Of a stretch of 64,000 nt of DNA, positions 9,041-49,801 are shown one piece after another (positions within the stretch are counted from its first letter, which is position 1; each line of letters starts with the position of its first letter). Position numbers and translations under genes: made by a program. This stretch comes from a virus. The stretch spans positions 1-64,000 of the IMG/VR virus record IMGVR_UViG_3300030060_003910. One strand, given 5' to 3'. The notes beneath the pieces were generated by a model. It did not search any database and was not told the DNA's origin. It saw only the letters and a list, made by a program, of their open reading frames with translations.

Positions 9041-9532
9041 ACTGTATCATGTAATGGGAGTAGGCCATACCCTATAATGGTGGCGGTTTTACCCTTGTTT
9101 AATTAAAGTTAATGCTTCAAAATGAGGCTTTTAAAGCATTTCGCTCTAGATGAGAAGAAATAAAAAATTTGAAACAAAGCCATATGGTTGTAGATTATGA
9201 ATGCGTGAAAAGTTGTTAATAACTACCATTTTCATCTATTGTCTTATTTTCATCTTCCTCTATGGTTTGCTATAGAACGCTATTGGTAACTACAAAATGT
9301 TTGTTTACAGCCATCTATGATGAATAACCATCTAATGCATCAACCCTAAATGATAGTTATTAAAAACATTAAAACCATATGGTGTTGCTTTGCTATAACC
9401 CCCAAGTGGGACGGGAAGAATTACCTCTTTTCTTCCCGCCCCCGTCTATCCCTCTATTCCCTGTTTGTTTGGGTCATAGTGCCATAACGAGAGGCTCATG
9501 GCTAACGGGCCGTTTTTGGGGTGCTACGGACT

Positions 9533-9778
9533 TCATGCCGTATTTGTTGAGTTTAGTCTTACAGAAATGCCATAATCATTTGAACTAATTTGGTAAGGGT
9601 AAGGAATACCCCAAATTAACTCATAATGGTCTGTGAAAGCCTTGATGAAGCGGTCAGCATCAAAACGCCCATTATCACGACGAAACATGAGAATCATGCT
9701 TTCAATGACTGGAACGGTAATGCCGTTCAATTCTGCTAAGGTTTCTGCTATCTTTTGGTAGTGCCTTCGTTGGAACAT
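9533..9778 (-). CDS. Cassette gene, hypothetical (MFQRRHYQKIA..., about 81 aa)
   Basis: Internal ATG at 9778 lies about 25 bp downstream of CCTTATA, implying a leaderless archaeal-type mRNA. Confidence 0.65.
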   Translation of the reverse strand: MFQRRHYQKIAETLAELNGITVPVIESMILMFRRDNGRFDADRFIKAFTDHYELIWGIPYPYQISSNDYGISVRLNSTNTA

Positions 9779-9892
9779 GATTAACCGCTTGATAAGCGGA
9801 TATAAGGTTTTATTACCAAAGTATGCAACCATATGGTAATTGCTTTGGTTTTACCTCAAGCAGTTTAGACCCATGCTTAGGGGTATTTGGGT

Positions 9893-10156
9893 TTAGATAA
9901 CCTTAGAGGCTGCCCAAACCTCAAGTTTTTGGACATCTTCGCTTCCAAGCGGGTTTTTCCGTGGAGTTGGGAAACCATGTATTTCACGATAATCGCGCAG
10001 ACCAAAACGACGGTTCAATTTATTGTTCACATATCTTTTCATTTTTTGATACTTATTCCAATGTATGTGGGAATAACCCAAACCGTTCATCTCATTGAGA
10101 CAAAACTCTTCCCCGCTAATTTTGCACACTCCCGTTATGGCTTTTTCTTTGCTCAT
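9893..10156 (-). CDS. Cassette gene, hypothetical (MSKEKAITG..., about 87 aa)
   Basis: ATG at 10156 lies about 25 bp downstream of CCTTAATA in the cassette arm. Confidence 0.6.
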   Translation of the reverse strand: MSKEKAITGVCKISGEEFCLNEMNGLGYSHIHWNKYQKMKRYVNNKLNRRFGLRDYREIHGFPTPRKNPLGSEDVQKLEVWAASKVI

Positions 10157-10271
10157 GTTAAACATTAAATTAATCATTTATTAAGGTTTTATCCAAAGTA
10201 TCAAACCATATGGTTAGGCTTTGCATTAACCCCATATAGGGGCTTCACAGGGGAAAACGCCGTGAAGAGCA

Positions 10272-10787
10272 TCATTCTTCCTCGGAAACCTCCATATCTG
10301 CTTTCACAGGGGTTGGCGTGATTTGAGGAACTCCGTCCTCAACAGCGAGTCCATCCCAACGATTTTCCTTAATGGCCTTGACCATGTAAGAATGCGCCTT
10401 ACTGCGGAAGGAATCAACCAATTCGCTAAAGGAGCCATAAACGCCGCCGGTTCGTCCGTGTGGCACAATAACCGATAGAATCATGTTGTGGTATTCAGTA
10501 GGGATTGCAGCAATAGCACCTGCCACTTTTTCCTCCACAGTCGCCAAAACAAGTTCCTGTTCGTCCGAAAGCGTGGATTCTCGCCCTCGTCGTGCCGCAG
10601 GAAAACCCTCCATAGTAGAGCCAATTGAACGAATAGCCGTCCAATAGGTGCTTCGCAGTTCATCTGTTCCCGCATTATCGCCCAAAGTGAGCGAAAGGAG
10701 AACAGCATTCAAGTTGTCGCTTTTTGGCTGTGTTTCAGCCCAAGCCCGCACTTTGTTTGTGTTCAATGTCCAATTCTTCATCTTCAT
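10272..10787 (-). CDS. Cassette gene, paralog family member 1 (LRSTYWTAIRSIGS / FPAARRGRES / PHGRTGG / RWDG)
   Basis: RBS GAGGTG before ATG 10787; clear similarity to 11410..11916. Confidence 0.8.
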   Translation of the reverse strand: MKMKNWTLNTNKVRAWAETQPKSDNLNAVLLSLTLGDNAGTDELRSTYWTAIRSIGSTMEGFPAARRGRESTLSDEQELVLATVEEKVAGAIAAIPTEYHNMILSVIVPHGRTGGVYGSFSELVDSFRSKAHSYMVKAIKENRWDGLAVEDGVPQITPTPVKADMEVSEEE

Positions 10788-10952
10788 TTTTTTCACCTCT
10801 TTCCTAAAAAAGATACTCCGCGTCGTTTTTCCCCTGTGGAGCAATAACCCACGGAGGTTGGCGTATAAGGTTGTTCCTACGCAAAGCGATTAACAACCAT
10901 ATGGTGTTACTTTGTTAATACCCTAAACAATACGACAAACAAGACATAAGGC

Positions 10953-11201
10953 ATGAACAAAGACAAAGCAAACCACATTATGAACCTTCTCGCAAAAACC
11001 TTTCCAAGCCTTGAACCGTGGCTTACTCGCCAATACATGGATGCCGTTATGAAGGATATGATACTCTATGCCGATGAACCACACGCTATGATTGGATTAG
11101 CGGAGATGGCCGCAAGTATTGAGGCTTTTGCTGATGCTATCGCTGAAGCCTCAATTGAAGAGATGTTTCATATTATGGCCGACATGATGGGGGGTGTTTG
11201 A
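10953..11201 (+). CDS. Cassette gene, Met/Ala-rich hypothetical protein (inverted cassette)
   Basis: 82 aa; in the only + strand cassette; ATG about 26 bp after CCCTAAA in the arm. Confidence 0.6.
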   Translation: MNKDKANHIMNLLAKTFPSLEPWLTRQYMDAVMKDMILYADEPHAMIGLAEMAASIEAFADAIAEASIEEMFHIMADMMGGV

Positions 11202-11363
11202 ATGATTTCCCATTGTCCTACTTGTAGTGCAGAATTGGCTAAAGATGATTTCATGTCTTTCGCTTTCATCTTAGGAGGCGATATTTGCCGTCATTGTCTT
11301 GATGACGGCCCTTCGGGGTCAAAAAAACAAAGCATGACCATATGGTTGTGCTTTGCCAGTTGA
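11202..11363 (+). CDS. Small Zn-finger protein reading through the 11338 site
   Basis: MISHCPTC...ICRHCLDD...MTIWLCFAS, 53 aa, starts right after the previous stop; not in the ORF track. Confidence 0.5.
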   Translation: MISHCPTCSAELAKDDFMSFAFILGGDICRHCLDDGPSGSKKQSMTIWLCFAS

Positions 11364-11409
11364 AAACGAAACCCCACCCGTAGGTGGGGCTGCGAGGGGA
11401 AAACCCGCA

Positions 11410-11916
11410 TCATTCCTCTTCTTGACCTCCTTCAGCCGATTTCACGGCAGGTGGGGTCAATGCTGGGATTTCACCGTTCATGGTTCCATCCCAACGACCT
11501 TCTTTGTAGCCCTTAACGAGAGCGTCATAGGCCTTTTTGCCCATTGACTGAGCCAAAGCCATGATGTCCTCAAATGCGCCACCAGTTCGCCCATGAGGGA
11601 GAATAACGGCGGTAATGAGGTCAGGGTTAGAAATGCCCGCAAAGGCAGTAATAACCGCATTCTTCACAGAAGTCGCATTTAGGTCTACTTCTTCGGGCAA
11701 AGATGATTCTCGGCCTCGGCGGGCGGCTGGGAAATCATCATAAGGACTCCCAATTGAGCGAATTGCTGTCCAATAGGTGGAGCGCAAATCATCGCTATCC
11801 GTTGCATTTCCAAGTGTAATAGACAAAGAAATGGCTTGACCCACTTCTCCCCTATCTTCAAGTTCAAGCCATGCTTGAACCGCATTTGTGTTTTTAATCC
11901 AGTTGTCTTGCTTCAT
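11410..11916 (-). CDS. Cassette gene, paralog family member 2
   Basis: RBS GGAGG before ATG 11916; shares the motif blocks of 10272..10787. Confidence 0.8.
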   Translation of the reverse strand: MKQDNWIKNTNAVQAWLELEDRGEVGQAISLSITLGNATDSDDLRSTYWTAIRSIGSPYDDFPAARRGRESSLPEEVDLNATSVKNAVITAFAGISNPDLITAVILPHGRTGGAFEDIMALAQSMGKKAYDALVKGYKEGRWDGTMNGEIPALTPPAVKSAEGGQEEE

Positions 11917-12101
11917 AATCAATTCCTCCAAAAAGGTTTGATGCGTCCGTTTTCCCCTCGGAGCAACCAATGGCGACCATAGGCGACTATGGTTGCTTTT
12001 TCATTAACACTCGCAAAGCGAAAAGCAACCATATGGTAATGCTTTGTTATTTACCCCAACGCTCCGCTATTAAGGGCATTTGAAGGGGTTATTACACTAT
12101 C

Positions 12102-12218
12102 TCACTCTTCTTCACTCTCCAAATGCGCCATCACGAGGATAGACGCTTCTATCACTAACCCATTCTTATTGCACAGCCTCACAAGGGCTTTAGCCAATTC
12201 GCACCAATCTACCTTCAT
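12102..12218 (-). CDS. Cassette mini-gene (38 aa, MKVDWCELAKAL...ESEEE)
   Basis: Read directly from the sequence; AT-rich box about 25 bp upstream; EEE ending is typical of this genome. Confidence 0.5.
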   Translation of the reverse strand: MKVDWCELAKALVRLCNKNGLVIEASILVMAHLESEEE

Positions 12219-12344
12219 TGTTCTTCCTAAGTGGGTATGCTCTTAATTTATTGATTTAAATCCTTAAAGCCCTAATTTAAATTTTAGCAGGGTATTTATA
12301 ACAAAGCAACAATACCATATGGTTGTTGTTATGCTTTGCAGTAA

Positions 12345-12926
12345 TAAAAACCATAGCGAAGGCTTCACCAAACGGACAGGGAAAAGCCTATGTTGGTTGC
12401 TTTTTGCGCTAATTTGTCCGTTTGGTGTGTGAGTAAAATAAAACGCCGCCTACTCCATACATATCCGACTAACCACGCTACTTTGTTTCCTCTCTCGTAG
12501 TCTTGAATAAATCCCATGGAATAAATTCAAGCGGAGTTTCTTTCACGATTTATTGCGCTGTGTTTCGGCTTTGTTTCACTATGGTTTTATGGCCACTAAT
12601 AGCCATAGGAATGTGAAGGGTGGGATGAAGAATTGGGTATCTCCAAGTATGATGCGATTAGGTCGCACTCATTTTGAACGCTCTAATTGTTCTTAAGAGC
12701 CATACTGCCGACTTCGTGAAGTTGGTTTGTGGCCAACCGCCTTTTGAGCCTTAATCACTTTCACAGGGAACAATTAATCTATGCCACTTGGCCGTCATAA
12801 CTGCTTTGTGTCCCACAACAGGAGAAATCGCACATTACCCCCGTTCAAAGGGCATTGATGTTAATCCCCTCCGGGGGGAGCGACCCCCCGAAGCAATAGA
12901 ACCGAGCGATTATCGCTTATGGTTCT
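12345..12926. ncRNA. Candidate large structured non-coding RNA filling one cassette
   Basis: No ORF of 60 aa or more inside; stems CACCAAACGGACA/TGTCCGTTTGGTG (12367-12427), AAAACCATAGCGAA/TTCACTATGGTTTT, CTTGAAT/ATTCAAG, CCGACTTC/GAAGTTGG, CGGGGGG/CCCCCCG (12872-12890). Confidence 0.55.
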
Positions 12927-13003
12927 CCATGTGCAAAGCAATATAGAACCATATGGTTTTACTTTGGTTAAACCCCTCAGCAATTGCTTCACAGGGGGGA
13001 TAA

Positions 13004-13366
13004 TCACCATTCATCCCTTGGGTTGAAGTAAGTGTGCCTACCTCGCTCATCGGAAGTAAATGAACCTCCCCAACCCATTTCATACGAGCGAGTTCGCATT
13101 TCGGCGTTGTCCTCACGAATGCGCTCATTGATGTCTTTTTGAGTGTAGTGGAACGGCTTGTGTTTCTTGGCGTATTCCTTCCAAATTGGAAGAATTTCAT
13201 CCAAGTCGTCCTTTTCCATCATCTCTTCGGAAACATCAGCAGTTTCCCAAAAGGTTTCGTAGATGGTATCTACGCAGAAGAAATACCTAATTCCTTCCTC
13301 GTTTCTAACCCATCGGTTTTCCCTATCTGTTTTTTCATCAAGCCATTCATAAAATGTTTTTGCCAT
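13004..13366 (-). CDS. Cassette gene, acidic Trp/Glu-rich hypothetical protein
   Basis: 120 aa, RBS GGAGG, CCTTAAG in the upstream arm. Confidence 0.75.
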   Translation of the reverse strand: MAKTFYEWLDEKTDRENRWVRNEEGIRYFFCVDTIYETFWETADVSEEMMEKDDLDEILPIWKEYAKKHKPFHYTQKDINERIREDNAEMRTRSYEMGWGGSFTSDERGRHTYFNPRDEW

Positions 13367-13559
13367 TTTTTAACCTCCAGCGAAAAAATGAGAGTAGTGG
13401 GTGCTTAAGGTATTATTTATTCAAAGTAAATAATACCATATGGTTTGAATAAATCAAAGAGCGCAGAATGTTCTTATTTAGCCATATTCAAACACGCTGA
13501 AACAGGGAGGATTTTCAGCCCCCGAAAATCCGTCAAATTTGACAGGGTGTTTCTCAACT

Positions 13560-14030
13560 GTGGTTATATTAATTCGTATTCATATTCTAATATGAATATT
13601 AGTATTATAGTAAAATAAATGGGTTGTCTCATGGTCGGGAGGGGATGAGATGAGACAACTCACGGAAGAATCATCAAGGTTATGCAACATAAGTAAAAAT
13701 ATATTTCTATTATCTCATTATCTCATCATCTCATCATCATCATCACTACTACTACACAACCCCTTATTTTCTTAGGGGTATGGAGAGAGAAACATTCCCC
13801 TTTTCGGATGAGATGAGATGAGACAACTTATTTTTGCAGGTTTCCGCAAGGTTCTAAGGGGTTGTGTTGCATAACCCCGTTGTCTCAAGATGAGACAACA
13901 GGCGAGACAATCTCATGCAGGGGGGCTTTGAAGTTATTTCAATGGGCGAACTATTGTTGAAAATAAAATCTATTTGATTCAACAACCGAATTAATTTATC
14001 ATTTAAGTTAAAATATAAAGGTGAAAAAAG
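13560..14030. repeat. Iteron-like ATGAGACAAC repeat cluster with AT-rich flanks; candidate origin or genome terminus
   Basis: ATGAGACAAC at 13650, 13818 and 13890; inverted copies at 13623 and 13879; ATGAG/CTCAT tandems; AT-rich tracts near 13565-13620 and 13950-14020; lies at the strand switch. Confidence 0.6.
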
Positions 14031-14103
14031 GGTAGGCAAACTGCTGAGTCATTAAGGAAAAGTTAGTAATTCCCTCAAAGGAAGTGCATTCGGAGGCATT
14101 TCA

Positions 14104-14118
14104 GGACTCCTTTATATA
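14104..14118 (+). promoter_or_regulatory. Archaeal-type promoter GGACTCCTTTATATA
   Basis: TATA box about 50 bp before 14170; identical 15-mer at 22087 and 39732. Confidence 0.75.
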
Positions 14119-14169
14119 CCTCAAGACAACTGTTGAGAATACCCCGCAAAGGGGAAGGAGAGATATAAC

Positions 14170-14646
14170 ATGGATGATACCACATGGGAAAGCCTCGTCA
14201 TTGAGGTGAACGAATACCTAGAAGCCGACACTACGCTTGATGCTGGATTGCGTCAGGTCGTTGAACTGAACCTGCAAATTGGGACAAACAACCCCGATGA
14301 GCGAACTGCCGCCGAAGGTGCGCTTAAAGCACTTTTGAAGGGAAGAGATGGAACCCCGTTCCGCCGAGGCCAAAAGAGCGCAGTTCCAGCCGCAGTTCGT
14401 GTTTCAATTGACCGAATCTGTGGAGTTGTTGAAGAAGCCTCTATTGGCTACTACAACCATGATGCAGTTATTGGTGCAATTACCATGAAGCACATCAAAT
14501 CTGGTGGCGGTGCTTATGATGACGCAGAAGATTACGCTTCTGCTGTTGTTAAGCGAACCCGAAACAATCTTGGCAAAATGTTCAAGAACGGTTCTTGGGA
14601 CGGTAGCGTTGATTCCCTTTTAGGAAACGACGAAACCACGCTTTGA
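14170..14646 (+). CDS. Distant third member of the cassette paralog family
   Basis: PFRRGQKS, HIKSGGGAY and KNGSWDG align with PAARRGRES, HGRTGGAF and KEGRWDG. Confidence 0.7.
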   Translation: MDDTTWESLVIEVNEYLEADTTLDAGLRQVVELNLQIGTNNPDERTAAEGALKALLKGRDGTPFRRGQKSAVPAAVRVSIDRICGVVEEASIGYYNHDAVIGAITMKHIKSGGGAYDDAEDYASAVVKRTRNNLGKMFKNGSWDGSVDSLLGNDETTL

Positions 14647-25195: not shown

Positions 25196-26353
25196 ATGAA
25201 ACTAAGAATTAAAAAACCAAATGATAGTAATGATTATTTTGAAACAAACATTACTTGTGCTACCTATGCTTTTAGGGACATTATGACAGTTGGTTATCTA
25301 CGAAATGCTAAAGACCCAATCCAAGCAGGATTAGAAGCCTTTTGGAAAGATATTATTTCTCCTAGAAAATCAAGGAGAACCTATTATAATGGCTTTGGAT
25401 ATAACTTTCATCATATTGTTTTTATTGAAGGTTGCCCTATCGTTCTTTCAAGAGAAGGCATTCGTTATCAATTGAATGGTAAGTCTTACAGCCTTGCTAC
25501 TATTTGTTCAGCACTATCAAGGATTACCTATAAATCATGTTTTGAGAAGAAGCCAGAGGCTTTGTTGTCTGCTTTGTATTCTACACTCAATTTGCCAGAA
25601 AATGTTAAGTATTGTATTGAAAATCGTGCACCATTTCATTTCTTCCAAGACTTTGAAAAGCAAGATGTTCGTTTGAATGTGGTTCAAATTGATGATAAGA
25701 TGCTTGCTATGGAAATTAGCGATGGTGTTTGGGGTGAAATAACTCCTAAGCAACTAGACTCTTACTGTAATTTTTATGTTCATGGTAAGCGCAGAGGCTC
25801 ATGGAAGTATCTTTCTCCTAAATCCCTATATACTAGGTTGATGGGTCGTGAACCAACGGAGGCTGAATTGAAAGTGATGGTTGCCTTTTTGATGCAGAAC
25901 AGAATGCAAGACATTGTGGACGCAAGAGCATTAGAATTGGTGGCTGATATGTTGATTCAACATAAAGGCCGACTATCTGCTGAGTATGACAATGATGGAG
26001 TATTGACTGACCTTTTCGTTAGAGGCAAGGATTATGACTGGCGATTGACAAATAATCGCTATAAGTCTGGTATTCAAATGGTTTCAACCTATGTCTGGCA
26101 ACCAGTCGTAGAAGCCATTAAGAGCAAAGACGACCTTAACGAAATCATTGATAAAAAATTATCCGAACCAGATTGGCGTGGCCCGATTTGTATTGATAAT
26201 ATGGCTGATGGTTCTCCATTGGGCGACCAATTCGCCGCAAGAGCATTAGCCCTTCTTAACGACTCTTTTACAATAACAATAGTGAATACGATTAAGCGGT
26301 ATCTTGCCGCCGAACCAAATGAATATAGGATTGATAATAATGATTTGCGATGA
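25196..26353 (+). CDS. Hypothetical protein; C-terminal region is a candidate divergent E2-like domain
   Basis: 385 aa; WRGPICID resembles the G-x-I-C-L active-site segment of E2 enzymes (inference). Confidence 0.4.
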   Translation: MKLRIKKPNDSNDYFETNITCATYAFRDIMTVGYLRNAKDPIQAGLEAFWKDIISPRKSRRTYYNGFGYNFHHIVFIEGCPIVLSREGIRYQLNGKSYSLATICSALSRITYKSCFEKKPEALLSALYSTLNLPENVKYCIENRAPFHFFQDFEKQDVRLNVVQIDDKMLAMEISDGVWGEITPKQLDSYCNFYVHGKRRGSWKYLSPKSLYTRLMGREPTEAELKVMVAFLMQNRMQDIVDARALELVADMLIQHKGRLSAEYDNDGVLTDLFVRGKDYDWRLTNNRYKSGIQMVSTYVWQPVVEAIKSKDDLNEIIDKKLSEPDWRGPICIDNMADGSPLGDQFAARALALLNDSFTITIVNTIKRYLAAEPNEYRIDNNDLR

Positions 26354-27197
26354 ATGTGGTAGTAATGATAACTCATTTGATGAGATACAAGGCGAAAGAG
26401 TTTGTAATAACTGTGGACTTATCTTAGTCCAAGAGATGTTTGAAGAAACCGTTCATATTTTAGATACGGGCGGAAACCTCAAACATTCTGCTGATAAAGG
26501 CAGATTAGGTTCTGTTATCACAGGTAAAGGTTCTTACAAATTCAATAAGTTCGGTAAGAATAGCGTGATTCCTCAACATATTCAAAATGCTTTAATGCAT
26601 TGTAATATGATTTTGGCTCATGTTGCTCCAGATTTGGGGCTAAACGAGCGTGTTGAGAAACTGTATCTTGATTTACATAACAAAGGCATATTTGGAAGAA
26701 GTCAAATTGAAGCAAGAGCAACGGCTGTTATCTTTTATGCTTTGAGAGAAAACGGAACACCTCATACCTTTGCAGAAGTTTCTGCTGAATTTGATGCTAA
26801 TTTAAAATCAGTTAAGAGATTAGTTAGAAAGATTAATCAAGTCTTTAGAAACAAAGCAGGATACAATCCTGTTAATCCACAGTATCTGTTAGAGAAAACT
26901 CTCAACGACATTACCGATGATTTAGTCTTTAGACGACAAACTATCAAAGTGTTGGAGTTCTTTGAAACAAAAGTAGCGCAGAATACCTTCAACAAAGGAA
27001 GGTCATATTATGCGTCTATCATTTGGATTTCAGCAAACATGAATGTGAACACGATGATAACTCAAAATCTAATCACAAAGAAAACGGGGTTCTCTCGTTT
27101 CAATATTAGGAGACAAACAAAAGCAATTCTATCTATGATTGGTTTAGAACTAGCCAGCCAAGTAAAGGGAAAACAATTAAGTGAATTAGGTGAATAA
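26340..27197 (+). CDS. tfb: Transcription initiation factor TFIIB/TFB homolog
   Basis: N-terminal Zn ribbon CDECGS...GERVCNNCGL and two cyclin-like repeats (GRS...A.VIFYALR; GRS..ASIIWIS). Confidence 0.85.
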   Translation: MICDECGSNDNSFDEIQGERVCNNCGLILVQEMFEETVHILDTGGNLKHSADKGRLGSVITGKGSYKFNKFGKNSVIPQHIQNALMHCNMILAHVAPDLGLNERVEKLYLDLHNKGIFGRSQIEARATAVIFYALRENGTPHTFAEVSAEFDANLKSVKRLVRKINQVFRNKAGYNPVNPQYLLEKTLNDITDDLVFRRQTIKVLEFFETKVAQNTFNKGRSYYASIIWISANMNVNTMITQNLITKKTGFSRFNIRRQTKAILSMIGLELASQVKGKQLSELGE

Positions 27198-27980: not shown

Positions 27981-28538
27981 ATGAGAAAAATATTAGTAGT
28001 TGGAGCAGGTGGAATTGGGAGTTTCTTGATTCCTACTTTGGATAAAGTCGGTCTTTACCGCATTCATGTGGCTGACCCTGATGGTGTAGAAACAAAGAAT
28101 CTACCTTATCAAAACTTTAAGAAAGGTCATGTTGGGCAGAATAAGGCTCAAGTAATGATGGATTCCTACGAATCTGTTAGTTCTTTTAGTAAATACCCAA
28201 TTTTAACGGCAAAACAAATGGAGGGCTATGACCTTGTGGTTTGTTGTGTTGATAACTTGGGCGTGAGGCGAACTTTATACAACACAACCCTTAAATGGCT
28301 TGACTTACGAGCGCAAGGCAGAAATGCCGCCCTTGTGTCGCATAAGGCCGACCCGAAGATGTATGATATGCTCTTAGCAGGTGAAGAAGGTTCATTCAGT
28401 TGTCAAGGAGATTCATGGGATGGAACAAATAGTAATGTTCACTTTATGCAGGTCGCAATTGCTGGATTAGGTTCACAATGGATTCAAAGATACTTCAATG
28501 AAGAAGAAGTGAGAGATTATATGGTGGTGAATGTATGA
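27981..28538 (+). CDS. ThiF/MoeB/E1-like activating enzyme
   Basis: VVGAGGIGS, D.D.VE.KNL..Q, NKA, CCVDN...R. Confidence 0.88.
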   Translation: MRKILVVGAGGIGSFLIPTLDKVGLYRIHVADPDGVETKNLPYQNFKKGHVGQNKAQVMMDSYESVSSFSKYPILTAKQMEGYDLVVCCVDNLGVRRTLYNTTLKWLDLRAQGRNAALVSHKADPKMYDMLLAGEEGSFSCQGDSWDGTNSNVHFMQVAIAGLGSQWIQRYFNEEEVRDYMVVNV

Positions 28539-29581
28539 GTAGAAAAAGGAGATTTTGGACAGATGAACAGTTAGCATTTCTTGTTGTTTGCAGGACAAAG
28601 AGACAAACATGGGAACAAATTGCTCATTCTATGCAGGAAAAGTTCGGTTTTTGGAGAAGCCCTGCTAGTATTGGAGCAAAATATCGCAGTCTTTTTGATG
28701 GCGACCACGCGAAAGAATATACACCCGAACAATCAAAATTCATTGTTGATTGTTATTTAAATCATTTCCAAACAAAAATAATTCTTGATGGTTATTTTGA
28801 ACAATTTGGTCAAACTATCAATAAATCAGATATTGATGAAGTCGTTAAAAAGCATCTAGCGACTGAAAAGAAAGTAGATGCTGAAATTAAAACAATAAAA
28901 ACAAAAATTAAGGAGAGAAAAAATATGAAAAGAAAAACATGGACAAAAGAAGAAGATGAGCAATTGCTTGCTTGTGGTTCTTGGAAGAAAGCGATGGAAT
29001 TACAGAATGGTCGCTCAAGGTCGGCTAAAAATGCTCGTTGGGCGTTGCTACAACAGCAAAAGAAAAAGAAAGGCGCAAAGCGTGGCCGAATGACAAAGGC
29101 TGAATTGGAAATGATTCGCAATTGTGAAACCGTTGAAGAAGCATTGGCTTTGAATTTGCGAAAGCCCGAAACAATTATTCGGCAATTTGCTACCTTTAAC
29201 TCAAAGAAGAAAGAAGTTGTTCTTGCTGTTGGGCCTAAGCCAAAGAAGCAAAAGAAGGTGCGTAAGCAATATGCCCCTCGTTGGACGAAAGAAGAGGATT
29301 ATGACCTCATCTTGAACTTTTACGAACTTTCAATTGATGAAGCCCGAAACCGATTCAATCGGTCATACGGGACTATCGCAACCCGCTTAGAAAAGTTGGT
29401 TGATAGCACAAAGCCTGAGCATATCTCTATGCTTATGGAGGCTTCTAAGGAAATTAAGAGTCGCAAGGAAGCACAGAAACCAACGCCCAAAAAGAGCCGC
29501 AGAACGCTACGCAAGGAGCGAAAGAAGGCTAAGAAAGAGGCTAAGTTGAAGGCCAAGTTGCAGAAAATCCGAGGTGAATAA
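28535..29581 (+). CDS. Myb/SANT-like repeat DNA-binding protein
   Basis: Repeated WT.EE(D)..L helices (FWTDEQL, TWTKEEDEQL, RWTKEEDYDL); basic tail. Confidence 0.65.
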   Translation: MSRKRRFWTDEQLAFLVVCRTKRQTWEQIAHSMQEKFGFWRSPASIGAKYRSLFDGDHAKEYTPEQSKFIVDCYLNHFQTKIILDGYFEQFGQTINKSDIDEVVKKHLATEKKVDAEIKTIKTKIKERKNMKRKTWTKEEDEQLLACGSWKKAMELQNGRSRSAKNARWALLQQQKKKKGAKRGRMTKAELEMIRNCETVEEALALNLRKPETIIRQFATFNSKKKEVVLAVGPKPKKQKKVRKQYAPRWTKEEDYDLILNFYELSIDEARNRFNRSYGTIATRLEKLVDSTKPEHISMLMEASKEIKSRKEAQKPTPKKSRRTLRKERKKAKKEAKLKAKLQKIRGE

Positions 29582-29583
29582 AC

Positions 29584-30165
29584 ATGGGAAGAATTAAAGA
29601 TAAAATGATTAAAGATGGTGATGACGACGATGATGATGGTTATGACCATTATGAGATTGAACAAGCGGAATTGGAGTATTTCCGACAAAAAGTGATTGAG
29701 GACATTGGAAACCTTCACGAAGAATTGTTTCAAGAACAGTTTAAAACAACGACTGTTGATAGAAACAAGTTTGAAGGTGCAGTTATGCACGATTTAAATT
29801 TCCACGCTGCAATTTGGAAGGCTTCAACAGAAACCCTTCCTAATCTTGAAGTGCAGGTTGTTATTGACAACAACAACAATTGTTTCGTTTCAACCGGAAG
29901 TCCGGGCTATGTTGATTTTTTCCAACCACCAGTCGGCATGACTCTTCCTATTCGTTGTTGGATTCATACTCATCCATTTGGGGCCGCATATTTTAGCGGA
30001 ACTGATATTCGGACTGTTTCTATTTGGGAACCAAACATGGAATGTGCATATGTTCTTGGAGACAATCAGTATGGTTTTTGGGAGAACCAATTTAATCCTA
30101 AACAATTAGAAATATTTTTGGACAATGAAGTGCAAAAAACTCAAACATGGGGTGAAGAAGAATGA
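29584..30165 (+). CDS. JAB/MPN+ metallo-isopeptidase
   Basis: E...WIHTHP....FSGTD (JAMM motif). Confidence 0.85.
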   Translation: MGRIKDKMIKDGDDDDDDGYDHYEIEQAELEYFRQKVIEDIGNLHEELFQEQFKTTTVDRNKFEGAVMHDLNFHAAIWKASTETLPNLEVQVVIDNNNNCFVSTGSPGYVDFFQPPVGMTLPIRCWIHTHPFGAAYFSGTDIRTVSIWEPNMECAYVLGDNQYGFWENQFNPKQLEIFLDNEVQKTQTWGEEE

Positions 30166-48170: not shown

Positions 48171-49125
48171 TTATGCTAACTTTATTAATGCTCAAAATAA
48201 CAGGACGAATGTATATACTACGGTCTATGATTTCCAGCATTTTTCAGAGAAAGCGAAGGTAGAATCCTCAGTAATTATTGATAGAATTTTTCTTGATTTT
48301 GATGCACACGAAGATAAATTAGATTTGGCTTGGAGGGATGTTAAAGTGGTAATGCAATTAGTTCATCAAAAAGATTATCTACATACGCTTTTCTTTTCGG
48401 GTCGTGGCTTTCATCTATTTTTGTTCGGTAAGAAAACAAATAATATGAGAAATGTTCAAACTCTTTTCCGAGAGATTAAAGCATATCTCTCATCAAAAGT
48501 TGGTAGTAAAAATACACTTGATGATAGGGTAGGACAAACAACAAGATTACGCCGTATTCCTAATACGGTAAATATGTCATCTTCTGACGAAAACGGCAAA
48601 CCCTATTATTGCATACCCTTGACACAGTTTGACCTTATGTGTGAACTTGAAGATATTCTTGAGATTGCGAAAGAACCCCGCCTTATCCCCTTCCAAAAGG
48701 GTGGAAAAAACGAGGTGTTGTTTCCCGATGCACCCCCCATTGAGGCGATAGAGGGCGAGGTTTCCGTTCCTGATACGGTAGGAAAACTCCCAATGTTGCC
48801 CTGTTTGCATAATGCGGTAATGACGGAGAATCCTTCACATATGGCGAGAGCATACCTTGTTTCTTGGTATCGTGATTTGCTTTCGGGCTATCGTGATTTA
48901 TCTTCGGGACAAGAAAAAATGAAAGTGCTGAACTTAGTGGTTGAAGAACTTGAAAGAGTATTTTCTGAATCTGATTCGGTATGGCTTGATTGGGATAAAA
49001 ACGAAACTAGAAAACACGCAAGATTTACAGTATTCAATAACTACAATACGCCTCATTGTGATAAATTGATTAGTGATGGTTTTTGTGTTGGTAAATGTTG
49101 GAGGTATCACGGTGCTAGTAATTGA
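48085..49125 (+). CDS. Archaeo-eukaryotic primase, PriS-PriL(CTD) fusion
   Basis: FLDFD, FSGRGFH, RLRRIPNT; C-terminal LPCL...H.AR...YNTPHC...FC..C Fe-S-type domain. Confidence 0.85.
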   Translation: MKFPREVWAGSHIKNAPQMKRKVVLARNDYANFINAQNNRTNVYTTVYDFQHFSEKAKVESSVIIDRIFLDFDAHEDKLDLAWRDVKVVMQLVHQKDYLHTLFFSGRGFHLFLFGKKTNNMRNVQTLFREIKAYLSSKVGSKNTLDDRVGQTTRLRRIPNTVNMSSSDENGKPYYCIPLTQFDLMCELEDILEIAKEPRLIPFQKGGKNEVLFPDAPPIEAIEGEVSVPDTVGKLPMLPCLHNAVMTENPSHMARAYLVSWYRDLLSGYRDLSSGQEKMKVLNLVVEELERVFSESDSVWLDWDKNETRKHARFTVFNNYNTPHCDKLISDGFCVGKCWRYHGASN

Positions 49126-49801
49126 TTCAAGAGAGAAGTCCAAATTAGCCAAACTGGTTATGCAAAAAGCAAAGGGCTTAAATATACAATACGAACAGCG
49201 TTGGATTGAGATAGGCGACTACATCTACGATGATGTTTGTTTTGAAGCAAAATCAACAACGGACTTTTTGGGTTCAGTAATGACAAAAAGATTATGGACG
49301 CAAATTGACAATATGGATAGACACTATAAAACAAATGTAGTGATTATTCATGGTAGTCTTGATGAAGCCATTATGAATGTAATTGAGAACTCTGGAAGCA
49401 ATATGCCAATTGGAACAAGAAGTATAATGCTTAACAATAAATTTCTTGGTGCAATTGGTAGACTTATTCTTGATACAGATGTAAAACCAGTATGGGTTGA
49501 AACAGAAGAAGAAGCGGCTTTGATTATTACAGCAGTATGTAAAATGAAACCAATGACAAGAGATGTAATTGCGCCGCAAGTATTCAAGAGATTAACTACT
49601 GATGATTTGCGACTAGATTTGCTATCCAGCATTAAAGGCGTATCAATTAAGAAAGCAAAAGAATTAATAAAACAATTTGGTTCCATTATGGAAATAGGTG
49701 AGTGTTCAGAATATGAATTACAAGCCATTGAAGGAATCGGAGAAACCTTAGCCAAAAGAATACTCTCCACATTAAACTCGGAAGAGAAGGTGAAAATATG
49801 A
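49112..49801 (+). CDS. XPF/ERCC4 structure-specific nuclease with HhH domain
   Basis: IDSRE, GDY, FEAKSTTDF, IKGVS and IEGIG HhH pair; GTG start after GGAGG. Confidence 0.85.
   Translation: MLVIDSREKSKLAKLVMQKAKGLNIQYEQRWIEIGDYIYDDVCFEAKSTTDFLGSVMTKRLWTQIDNMDRHYKTNVVIIHGSLDEAIMNVIENSGSNMPIGTRSIMLNNKFLGAIGRLILDTDVKPVWVETEEEAALIITAVCKMKPMTRDVIAPQVFKRLTTDDLRLDLLSSIKGVSIKKAKELIKQFGSIMEIGECSEYELQAIEGIGETLAKRILSTLNSEEKVKI

Follow-up and report, generated by a model that had tools for sequence, protein, structure and literature searches.

The cassette array and its source genome

We analysed a stretch of 64,000 nucleotides (hereafter, the window), positions 1 to 64,000 of the IMG/VR virus record IMGVR_UViG_3300030060_003910, in which one palindromic sequence recurs between small genes at positions 9374-13444. 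The source record is a 94,354-bp virus genome, classified by CheckV as complete. We consider it probable that this region is an array of polar cassettes, each running from a promoter to a terminator, which are exchanged via a short shared boundary by the general machinery of a magrovirus. Magroviruses rank among the most abundant archaeal viruses of the surface ocean, and we know of no cultured magrovirus and no cultured host of magroviruses.

The genome encodes a split PolB, an ATP-dependent ligase with an N-terminal domain, a class II ribonucleotide reductase and a UvrD helicase, together with head and tail genes of the caudoviral type; profile scans add a Cpn60-type chaperonin, RFC and an XPF/ERCC4-HhH2 nuclease (49073-49801), and the window encodes tRNA-Leu and tRNA-Arg. 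Ribonucleotide reductase, chaperonin and the same two tRNAs are among the traits given by Philosof et al. (PMC5434244) for group B magroviruses, whose hosts are Marine Group II (Poseidoniales) archaea. Judged by its gene traits and by the genome size of about 90-100 kb, the virus is assigned to the group B magroviruses, tailed viruses of Marine Group II (Poseidoniales) archaea. As the gene set is that of a group B magrovirus, the archaeal vocabulary used below (TATA box, leaderless ATG) is legitimate. A bacterial phage with the TATA boxes as -10 elements, a candidate that arose from GGAGG motifs, was dropped because of the magrovirus gene content; comparison with a phage collection gave matches only to bacterial-phage helicases, at no more than about 34% identity.

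Nine exact copies of the core ACCATATGGT start at 9374, 9828, 10205, 10896, 11337, 12028, 12314, 12948 and 13435 and delimit eight cassettes. With at most one mismatch allowed, the core has 11 matches in the window versus 1.55 expected, and none of 100 shuffles reached 11; the arm-plus-core pattern is confined to this array within the 94-kb genome. The array consists of the following features (aa, amino acids; SD, Shine-Dalgarno).

Core 1 (ACCATATGGT), 9374..9383: left array boundary, CTTTG arm on the right side only
Cassette 1, 9379..9832, minus strand: terminator-type arm 9379-9400 and GC hairpins to about 9440; gene 9778..9533 (81 aa, leaderless); at the gene-start end, TATA box TTATAT 9805-9800 and promoter-type arm 9806-9832
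Cassette 2, 9833..10209, minus strand: terminator-type arm 9833-9855 and hairpin; gene 10156..9893 (87 aa, leaderless); at the gene-start end, TATA box TTAATA 10184-10179 and promoter-type arm 10185-10209
Cassette 3, 10210..10900, minus strand: terminator-type arm 10210-10231 and hairpin CCCC-ATATA-GGGG 10230-10242; gene 10787..10272 (171 aa, SD-led); at the gene-start end, TATA box TTATAC 10868-10863 and promoter-type arm 10869-10900
Cassette 4 (the inverted unit), 10901..11341, plus strand: promoter-type arm 10901-10922 and TATA-like CTAAAC 10923-10928; genes 10953-11201 (82 aa) and 11202-11363 (53 aa, zinc-ribbon-like), plus strand; at the gene-end side, GC hairpins about 11281-11319 and terminator-type arm 11317-11341
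Cassette 5, 11342..12032, minus strand: terminator-type arm 11342-11373 and hairpin CCCCACC-CGTA-GGTGGGG 11372-11389; gene 11916..11410 (168 aa, SD-led); at the gene-start end, TATA-like ATAGTC 11990-11985 and promoter-type arm 11991-12032 with a 10-bp foot stem
Cassette 6, 12033..12318, minus strand: terminator-type arm 12033-12055; gene 12218..12102 (38 aa, acidic tail); promoter-type arm 12291-12318
Cassette 7, 12319..12952, non-coding: left arm 12319-12352, followed by ATAGCG; right arm 12921-12952, with ATAAGC 12920-12915
Cassette 8, 12953..13439, minus strand: terminator-type arm 12953-12974 and hairpin CCCCT..GGGGGG 12973-12999; gene 13366..13004 (120 aa, SD-led); at the gene-start end, TATA-like TTAAGC 13408-13403 and promoter-type arm 13409-13439 with an 11-bp foot stem
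Core 9, 13435..13444: right array boundary; flank without a CTTTG arm, with its own hairpin GTTTGAATA...TATTCAAAC to about 13495
Degenerate tenth core GCCATATGGT, 9179..9188: one mismatch, no CTTTG arms
Backbone gene, 14170..14646, plus strand: 158 aa, conserved, found next to the array wherever a related genome includes the flank

Read from left to right, the ends are of terminator type and then promoter type in cassettes 1, 2, 3, 5, 6 and 8, the reverse in cassette 4, and of promoter type on both sides in cassette 7. These end types agree with the genes, all of which lie on the minus strand apart from those of cassette 4. An earlier note on this DNA had placed TATA boxes beyond the gene-start arms, and every position that it quoted proved correct on the minus strand (CCTTATA 9801-9807, CCTTAA 10181-10186, TTATAC 10868-10863, TTAAGC 13408-13403 and ACC-ATAGTC 11990-11985); the spacing of about 25 bp that it gave for two leaderless genes is 25 bp to the ATG at 9778 and 26 bp to that at 10156. 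The GC hairpins that it assigned to gene-end arms were likewise located at 10230-10242, 11372-11389 and 12973-12999. It had further described the plus-strand cassette as reversed in polarity, and here ACC-CTAAAC (10920-10928) indeed stands 30 nt ahead of the ATG at 10953, with CCC-TTCG-GGG at about 11309-11319 on the right. Of the two units that it found less clean, cassette 6 fits the rule, having its terminator-type end on the left and its promoter-type end on the right, and cassette 7 does not.

The 171-aa gene of cassette 3 is a paralog of the gene of cassette 5 and of the backbone gene 14170-14646. In cassette 4, the 53-aa open reading frame (ORF) 11202-11363 has no stop before the boundary, and its frame crosses the terminator-type hairpin, the arm and the core into the arm of cassette 5.

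Structure of the boundary

Each cassette ends in a hairpin of the form ATGGT-x-[loop with RCTTTG]-x'-ACC, in which the GGT of the core and a variable spacer pair with a complementary spacer and ACC. The ACC from which the earlier note read its arms is the 3' foot of this boundary hairpin, the 5' foot being the GGT of the core. A joint is formed by two such hairpins placed back to back around AT|AT, in the palindrome ACCAT|ATGGT.

A pattern scan of IMG/VR for the full site gave at least 120 stretches, many of them from contigs of about 90-96 kb and often with the sites in arrays of up to 11 cores; altogether 517 cores and 368 unique cassettes were obtained. A perfect foot stem of at least 5 bp was observed at 42% of the 654 cassette ends from related viruses, versus 10% when the tails were swapped between ends, and there were 85 distinct foot stems. 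Thus, the structure of the hairpin rather than its sequence is conserved. CTTTG was found at 89% of the cassette ends.

Two simpler descriptions of the arm were rejected. An asymmetric arm with a longer spacer on the promoter side disagrees with the arm lengths, whose medians at the two kinds of end are 25 and 24 nt (p = 0.65, not significant), and a simple palindrome with a TTT triloop fits 48 of the 643 arms, most loops being asymmetric.

The outermost cores are half sites, with a CTTTG arm on the array side only, and the degenerate core at 9179..9188 is probably a relic. In a literature search, the core sequence turned up only as NdeI cloning primers.

Polarity of the cassettes in related arrays

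To orient cassettes, we used the longest ORF if it covered at least 60% of the unit, which gave 138 oriented cassettes from about 100 related virus contigs. The end types were assigned by a log-odds matrix combined with the folding energy; regular-expression classifiers were discarded as too crude.

On the gene-start side of the oriented cassettes (n = 138), the arm is followed by ACC-Y-T-A-W-A in a context of 69% A+T, and on the gene-end side by ACC-C-C and then a G-rich segment, a hairpin that includes the ACC as well. The 30 nt past the arm had a folding energy of -2.3 kcal/mol on the start side versus -6.0 on the end side, and the more stable side was the gene end in 104 and the gene start in 30 of the 134 pairs (Wilcoxon p = 2e-13). 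Distances from ACC to the start codon form two peaks, a sharp one at 25-34 nt and a broad one at 65-85 nt, the latter comprising SD-led genes; the sharp peak would fit transcription starting at or next to the ATG, approximately 25 nt past the TATA box. The composite of hairpin arm and TATA box at the start, and of GC hairpin and arm at the end, was observed at every joint of the window and in the 368 related cassettes.

Among the classified cassettes, 141 had one promoter-type and one terminator-type end, 51 had two promoter-type ends and 12 had two terminator-type ends. The joints between them were tandem (n = 112), divergent (n = 64) or convergent (n = 24). The claim that polarity resides in what follows the arm is borne out: the arms are of similar length at both ends, and the tendency is statistically robust in the related loci. 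Since the boundary element is identical at both ends of a unit, in inverted orientation, nothing but the TATA box and the GC hairpin gives the unit its polarity. As these two lie just inside the boundary, they necessarily turn round when a unit is reversed.

Gain, loss and reordering of cassettes

A total of 392 cassettes fell into 305 nucleotide clusters, which at one fixed locus argues for targeted turnover. Denoting clusters by numbers, the order is 67-1-68-0-x-3-32 in the window, 0-x-x-x-1-x-3 in the related contig L104, and reversed, 0-...-1, in L057; clusters 63 and 64 are swapped between L068 and L079. In aligned copies of one cassette the arms are retained up to ACCAT, and what lies beyond the core is a promoter-type arm, a terminator-type arm or the flank of the array. 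In 17 end comparisons, the 25 nt on the inner side of the core matched at 80% identity or more, and identity on the outer side stayed under 50%.

In L104, the homologue of cassette 7 abuts the same right flank as in the window and cassette 8 is absent, hence cassette 8 is a precise extra unit in the window. A relative of approximately 90% identity has two other units in place of cassette 6. Contigs of two RNA-library runs from two studies (X17 and X20) precisely lack cassette 2, the joint passing from 9826 to 10204 with 11 letters that fit both sides. Block movement at the palindrome, which the earlier note had deduced from the window, is supported by these changes of neighbours and order, by the clear cases in which similarity ends at ACCAT|ATGGT, and by the absence of cassette 2 and the additional cassette 8.

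With the backbone (the 158-aa and UvrD genes) as the reference, 62 cassettes are directed away from it and 34 towards it, and 4 of the 13 cassette protein families with multiple members occur in both orientations. Two pairs of opposite orientation were inspected (L106/L117 and L057/L117); in both, the promoter-type arm is on the gene-start side, and in L106/L117 this arm is 84% identical; thus, the ends flip with the unit. The suggestion that arms invert together with their cassette is therefore supported by the mixed families, and does not extend to cassette 4 itself, which was not seen inverted: in the window and in both relatives with a homologue (contigs L092 and L019) it has one orientation.

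These observations bear on two alternatives. The first is an active invertible switch of the shufflon type, where cassette 4 or other units flip within the population and thereby change expression. Palindromic joints and the existence of both convergent and divergent arrangements would suit such a switch, but no recombinase was found (see below), the homologues of cassette 4 share its orientation, and flipping would change little because each unit has its own promoter. We regard the switch as very improbable; judged from the sequence comparisons, the evidence is of evolutionary shuffling, not of active switching.

The second is a purely regulatory element, an operator or insulator combined with promoter and terminator signals that serves a co-regulated block and takes no part in gene exchange, with the differences between cassettes produced by unrelated illegitimate recombination. 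In agreement with this, 176 of the 200 classified joints have at least one promoter-type arm, and the genome encodes possible transcription factors (a weakly TFIIB-like ORF 26304-27197 and a Myb-like ORF 28535-29581). However, the break points fall repeatedly at the core, in genomes and read sets that are independent of one another, the arms move along with their cassettes, joints between two terminator-type ends keep the full site, and the 305 clusters among 392 cassettes at a single locus indicate targeted turnover. Hence an exclusively regulatory role seems improbable.

Outside the virus set, a search of prokaryote genomes (596 Gb) gave the site only as chance singles and in one multi-site contig. 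The latter (L166, NZ_NZTP01000027.1, 14.7 kb, labelled as an Altibacter sp. metagenome-assembled genome) contains five full sites and close homologues of the 158-aa and UvrD genes, with 86% and 73% identity, respectively. Almost certainly, this contig comes from a magrovirus and was mis-binned into a flavobacterial genome.

RNA-library contigs and the probable RNA of cassette 7

The RNA-library data are assembled contigs of four runs, from which strand and true ends are not visible. The depth is very uneven between neighbouring cassettes, and there are loose contig ends exactly at cores 9374 and 13435. The contigs of cassette 5 end at 11964, about 24 nt past its TATA-like box. Some parts of the array, such as cassette 6 and the left part of cassette 7, are without RNA-library cover, which does not show them to be silent. 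The contigs of the four runs have no joints that change strand within the array, contigs being blind to rare inversion. The earlier proposal that each cassette is a self-contained unit gains support from this uneven depth, as well as from the ATG peak 25-34 nt past the hairpin foot and from the GC hairpins at gene ends.

Cassette 7 contains no ORF, and eight homologous cassettes were found in other contigs, giving nine copies in total. Two of the copies represent a short form of about 460 nt, without the left 200 nt.

L019:777-1398, homologue of cassette 7
L104:3083-3705, homologue of cassette 7
L182:10500-11121, homologue of cassette 7
L184:9847-10522, homologue of cassette 7
L185:7811-8432, homologue of cassette 7
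L186:4833-5451, homologue of cassette 7
L101:2688-3148, homologue of cassette 7
L183:5192-5653, homologue of cassette 7

The consensus fold has many compensatory pairs, and the conserved core folds slightly better on the minus strand. The right end is of promoter type in 9 of the 9 copies, and the left end is of terminator type in both short ones; we read the left part as an additional module that has a promoter-type end of its own. Contigs spanning 12511 or 12620 to 12893/4, from two metatranscriptome runs of a single study, have depths of 191 and 441, compared to 0-40 for the neighbours; the core of the cassette (12511-12894) is 5-40 times deeper than neighbouring cassettes. The contigs end 24-27 nt downstream of the right-hand TATA-like box. 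Cassette 7 thus probably yields an abundant structured RNA of about 380 nt from the minus strand, starting near 12894. Rfam gave no significant match in the array at E up to 1; in the entire window, only the two tRNAs were above the threshold.

Mechanism of exchange

A cassette comprises, in order, a boundary hairpin, an archaeal TATA box, a leaderless or SD-led gene (or an RNA), a GC-rich hairpin, and the boundary hairpin in inverted orientation. In the proposed scheme, the TATA box would fire each unit, and the GC hairpin would end or stabilise its RNA. Exchange would proceed by recombination within the short shared boundary via the general replication and recombination machinery of the virus, as has been proposed for the promoter early stem-loops (PeSLs) of bacterial phages discussed below; the palindrome probably docks a dimeric protein as well. 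A palindromic joint would allow deletion, insertion and inversion alike, all three being permitted because such a joint is both a direct and an inverted repeat of every other joint. That units occur in both orientations is explained by their joints, which are strictly palindromic and have two covarying hairpins, at either end of every unit.

Several observations weigh against this scheme. The sequence strictly shared between joints is 10 bp only, which is short for ordinary homologous recombination. About a quarter of the classified cassettes are of promoter type at both ends, which is partly classifier noise. Archaeal termination normally needs oligo-T rather than hairpins, and for this reason "terminator" is a mere label for the GC hairpins. 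RNA-library contigs cross the cores at 9374, 10896, 11337 and 12948, which may represent DNA carry-over or read-through, and the transcript ends are hinted at from assembled contigs, not mapped from raw reads. The uniform orientation of cassette 4 and its homologues belongs here as well.

The alternative is a dedicated site-specific system. In this case an unrecognised enzyme of the virus or the host would bind the hairpins with CTTTG loops, cut and rejoin at AT|AT, and move cassettes as circles in either orientation, resembling the folding of integron attC sites or the hairpin-guided transposition of IS200/IS605. It would explain the invariance of the 10-bp core and the CTTTG seen at 89% of the ends, even at promoter-free joints between two terminator-type ends; the covarying foot stems point to a structure-specific reader, the break points are confined to the core in the clear cases, the outermost sites are half sites, and the array is fixed beside the conserved 158-aa gene and a putative origin.

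On the other hand, six-frame searches of the whole 94-kb genome gave no match to tyrosine recombinases (PF00589; 14 of the 14 control genomes were positive), serine recombinases of the resolvase/invertase type (controls positive) or the Y1 HUH transposase (PF01797; controls positive), and Pfam scans of 60 larger ORFs across the genome found no recombinase or transposase. There were no circle junctions among the contigs of the four RNA-library runs. The exact break points are equally expected under general recombination, since the core is the only sequence common to all joints, and hence do not discriminate between the two explanations. We keep the dedicated enzyme as a rival because the core and CTTTG are invariant even at promoter-free joints and only 10 bp are shared, while considering it rather unlikely.

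In a bolder version, the palindrome and its two CTTTG-loop hairpins would be the att site of an undescribed structure-reading recombination system, with an enzyme outside the known recombinase families. Candidates for such an enzyme are the 158-aa protein, whose paralogs are found in cassettes, or the XPF-like nuclease acting with a ligase. This version we hold to be doubtful. Exchange by the general machinery thus stays our preferred explanation.

Setting of the array and neighbouring genes

The array lies where leftward genes (to 9040) and rightward genes (from 14170) meet, with the structural genes running leftward of it and the putative origin and replication genes rightward. The cumulative GC-skew minimum coincides with the array, and an iteron-rich, origin-like block adjoins it. 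Directly to the right, 13445-14170 consists of GATGAGATGAGACAAC-type repeats in both orientations, microsatellites and AT-rich DNA, with the GC-skew minimum, and is a putative replication origin. The G+C content is 0.41-0.46 in 10001-14000 versus 0.34-0.40 elsewhere in the genome.

In related loci reaching the flank, the array is flanked by the conserved 158-aa and UvrD genes. The 158-aa protein is distantly paralogous to many of the cassette genes, with about 25-30% identity. The family, of approximately 160-190 aa, has one backbone copy (14170-14646) and cassette copies including 10272-10787 and 11410-11916; conserved in it are W6, R45, P63 and G67, together with an H-GKSGG-like motif, WDG and an acidic tail (EEE). 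An AlphaFold model of the family is all-helical (pLDDT 87); it had no Foldseek match in PDB at E of 0.001 or below, and VIA-align gave only generic helical bundles with Z of 7.4 or below. Pfam and PHROG gave no convincing family for the cassette proteins.

The 297-aa ORF 26304-27197 matches TFIIB weakly, in a zinc ribbon (E = 2e-5) and a cyclin repeat (E = 0.009), with scores below the Pfam thresholds, and may encode a viral TFB-like factor reading the cassette promoters. Farther on, ThiF/E1-like (27981-28538), Myb-like (28535-29581) and JAB-like (29584-30165) ORFs follow one another, a hint of a module for ubiquitin-like modification. Within the structural module, a 1001-aa ORF (L180:13547-16552; genome 76547-79552) has a second domain of an ATP-dependent ligase, with E = 3e-28.

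Comparison with known systems

The closest parallel is provided by PeSLs, mobile regulatory cassettes of T4-type phages (Arbiol et al. 2010, PMC2839356; Comeau et al. 2014, PMC4122927). In both systems small, mostly ORFan genes of a hyperplastic region are each bracketed by a conserved composite of stem-loop and promoter, each unit is insulated in its transcription, whole units are inserted, deleted or replaced between related genomes with break points at the motifs, and no dedicated recombinase is known. The PeSL papers describe deletions, insertions, replacements and circles. However, the magrovirus has an archaeal host and archaeal signals (TATA box, leaderless starts) rather than sigma-70 promoters, and its units occur in both orientations between strict 10-bp palindromes with two covarying CTTTG-loop hairpins, inverted at both unit ends. 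PeSL crossovers fall between the -10 box, the SD and the ATG, whereas the clear break points of the magrovirus are in the core. There is also no sequence relation to PeSLs, which belong to T4-like bacterial myoviruses and combine a sigma-70 early promoter with a GGGG..CCCC stem. Going by sequence and phylogeny, the magrovirus cassettes are an analogue of PeSLs, not a member.

An archaeal precedent is the haloarchaeal myovirus HGTV-1 (Sencilo et al. 2013, via PMC3950731), for which a TATA-like box with an inverted repeat was described ahead of many ORFs in one arm of the genome and likened to PeSLs. It is, similarly, an archaeal tailed virus with a repeated TATA-plus-inverted-repeat motif preceding ORFs; the two sentences given to it there contain no mention of a palindromic joint, terminator-type ends, both orientations or comparative shuffling. 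A keyword search of the magrovirus papers PMC5434244 and PMC11706807 gave no mention of promoters, palindromes or cassettes.

Integrons likewise keep small cassettes of great diversity in an array at a single fixed locus, with boundary sites that fold as imperfect palindromes with covarying stems. Unlike in integrons, no tyrosine recombinase or IntI was found in the genome; the cassettes carry their own promoters instead of depending on a common Pc, with a TATA-like box and an ATG 25-34 nt downstream; and they occur in both orientations, with the site at both ends of every cassette and a perfect palindrome as the joint. IS200/IS605 elements differ in that the genome has no match to their Y1 HUH transposase (TnpA).

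Implications

With this finding, PeSL-style modular shuffling is shown to have a counterpart in archaeal viruses, in which the palindromic joint permits inversion as well. If a dedicated enzyme were involved after all, it would be a new kind of recombination system, and if the site were indeed an att site, promoter-bearing cassettes would be inserted and excised either way, an "integron without an integrase" for archaeal viruses. The polar architecture provides a sequence-only rule for gene orientation, promoters and unit boundaries in magrovirus genomes. The cassette is a compact portable module of promoter, gene and terminator, one that archaeal genetics could put to the test, and the cassette joints mark where the accessory genes of magroviruses, and at least one abundant RNA, get swapped.

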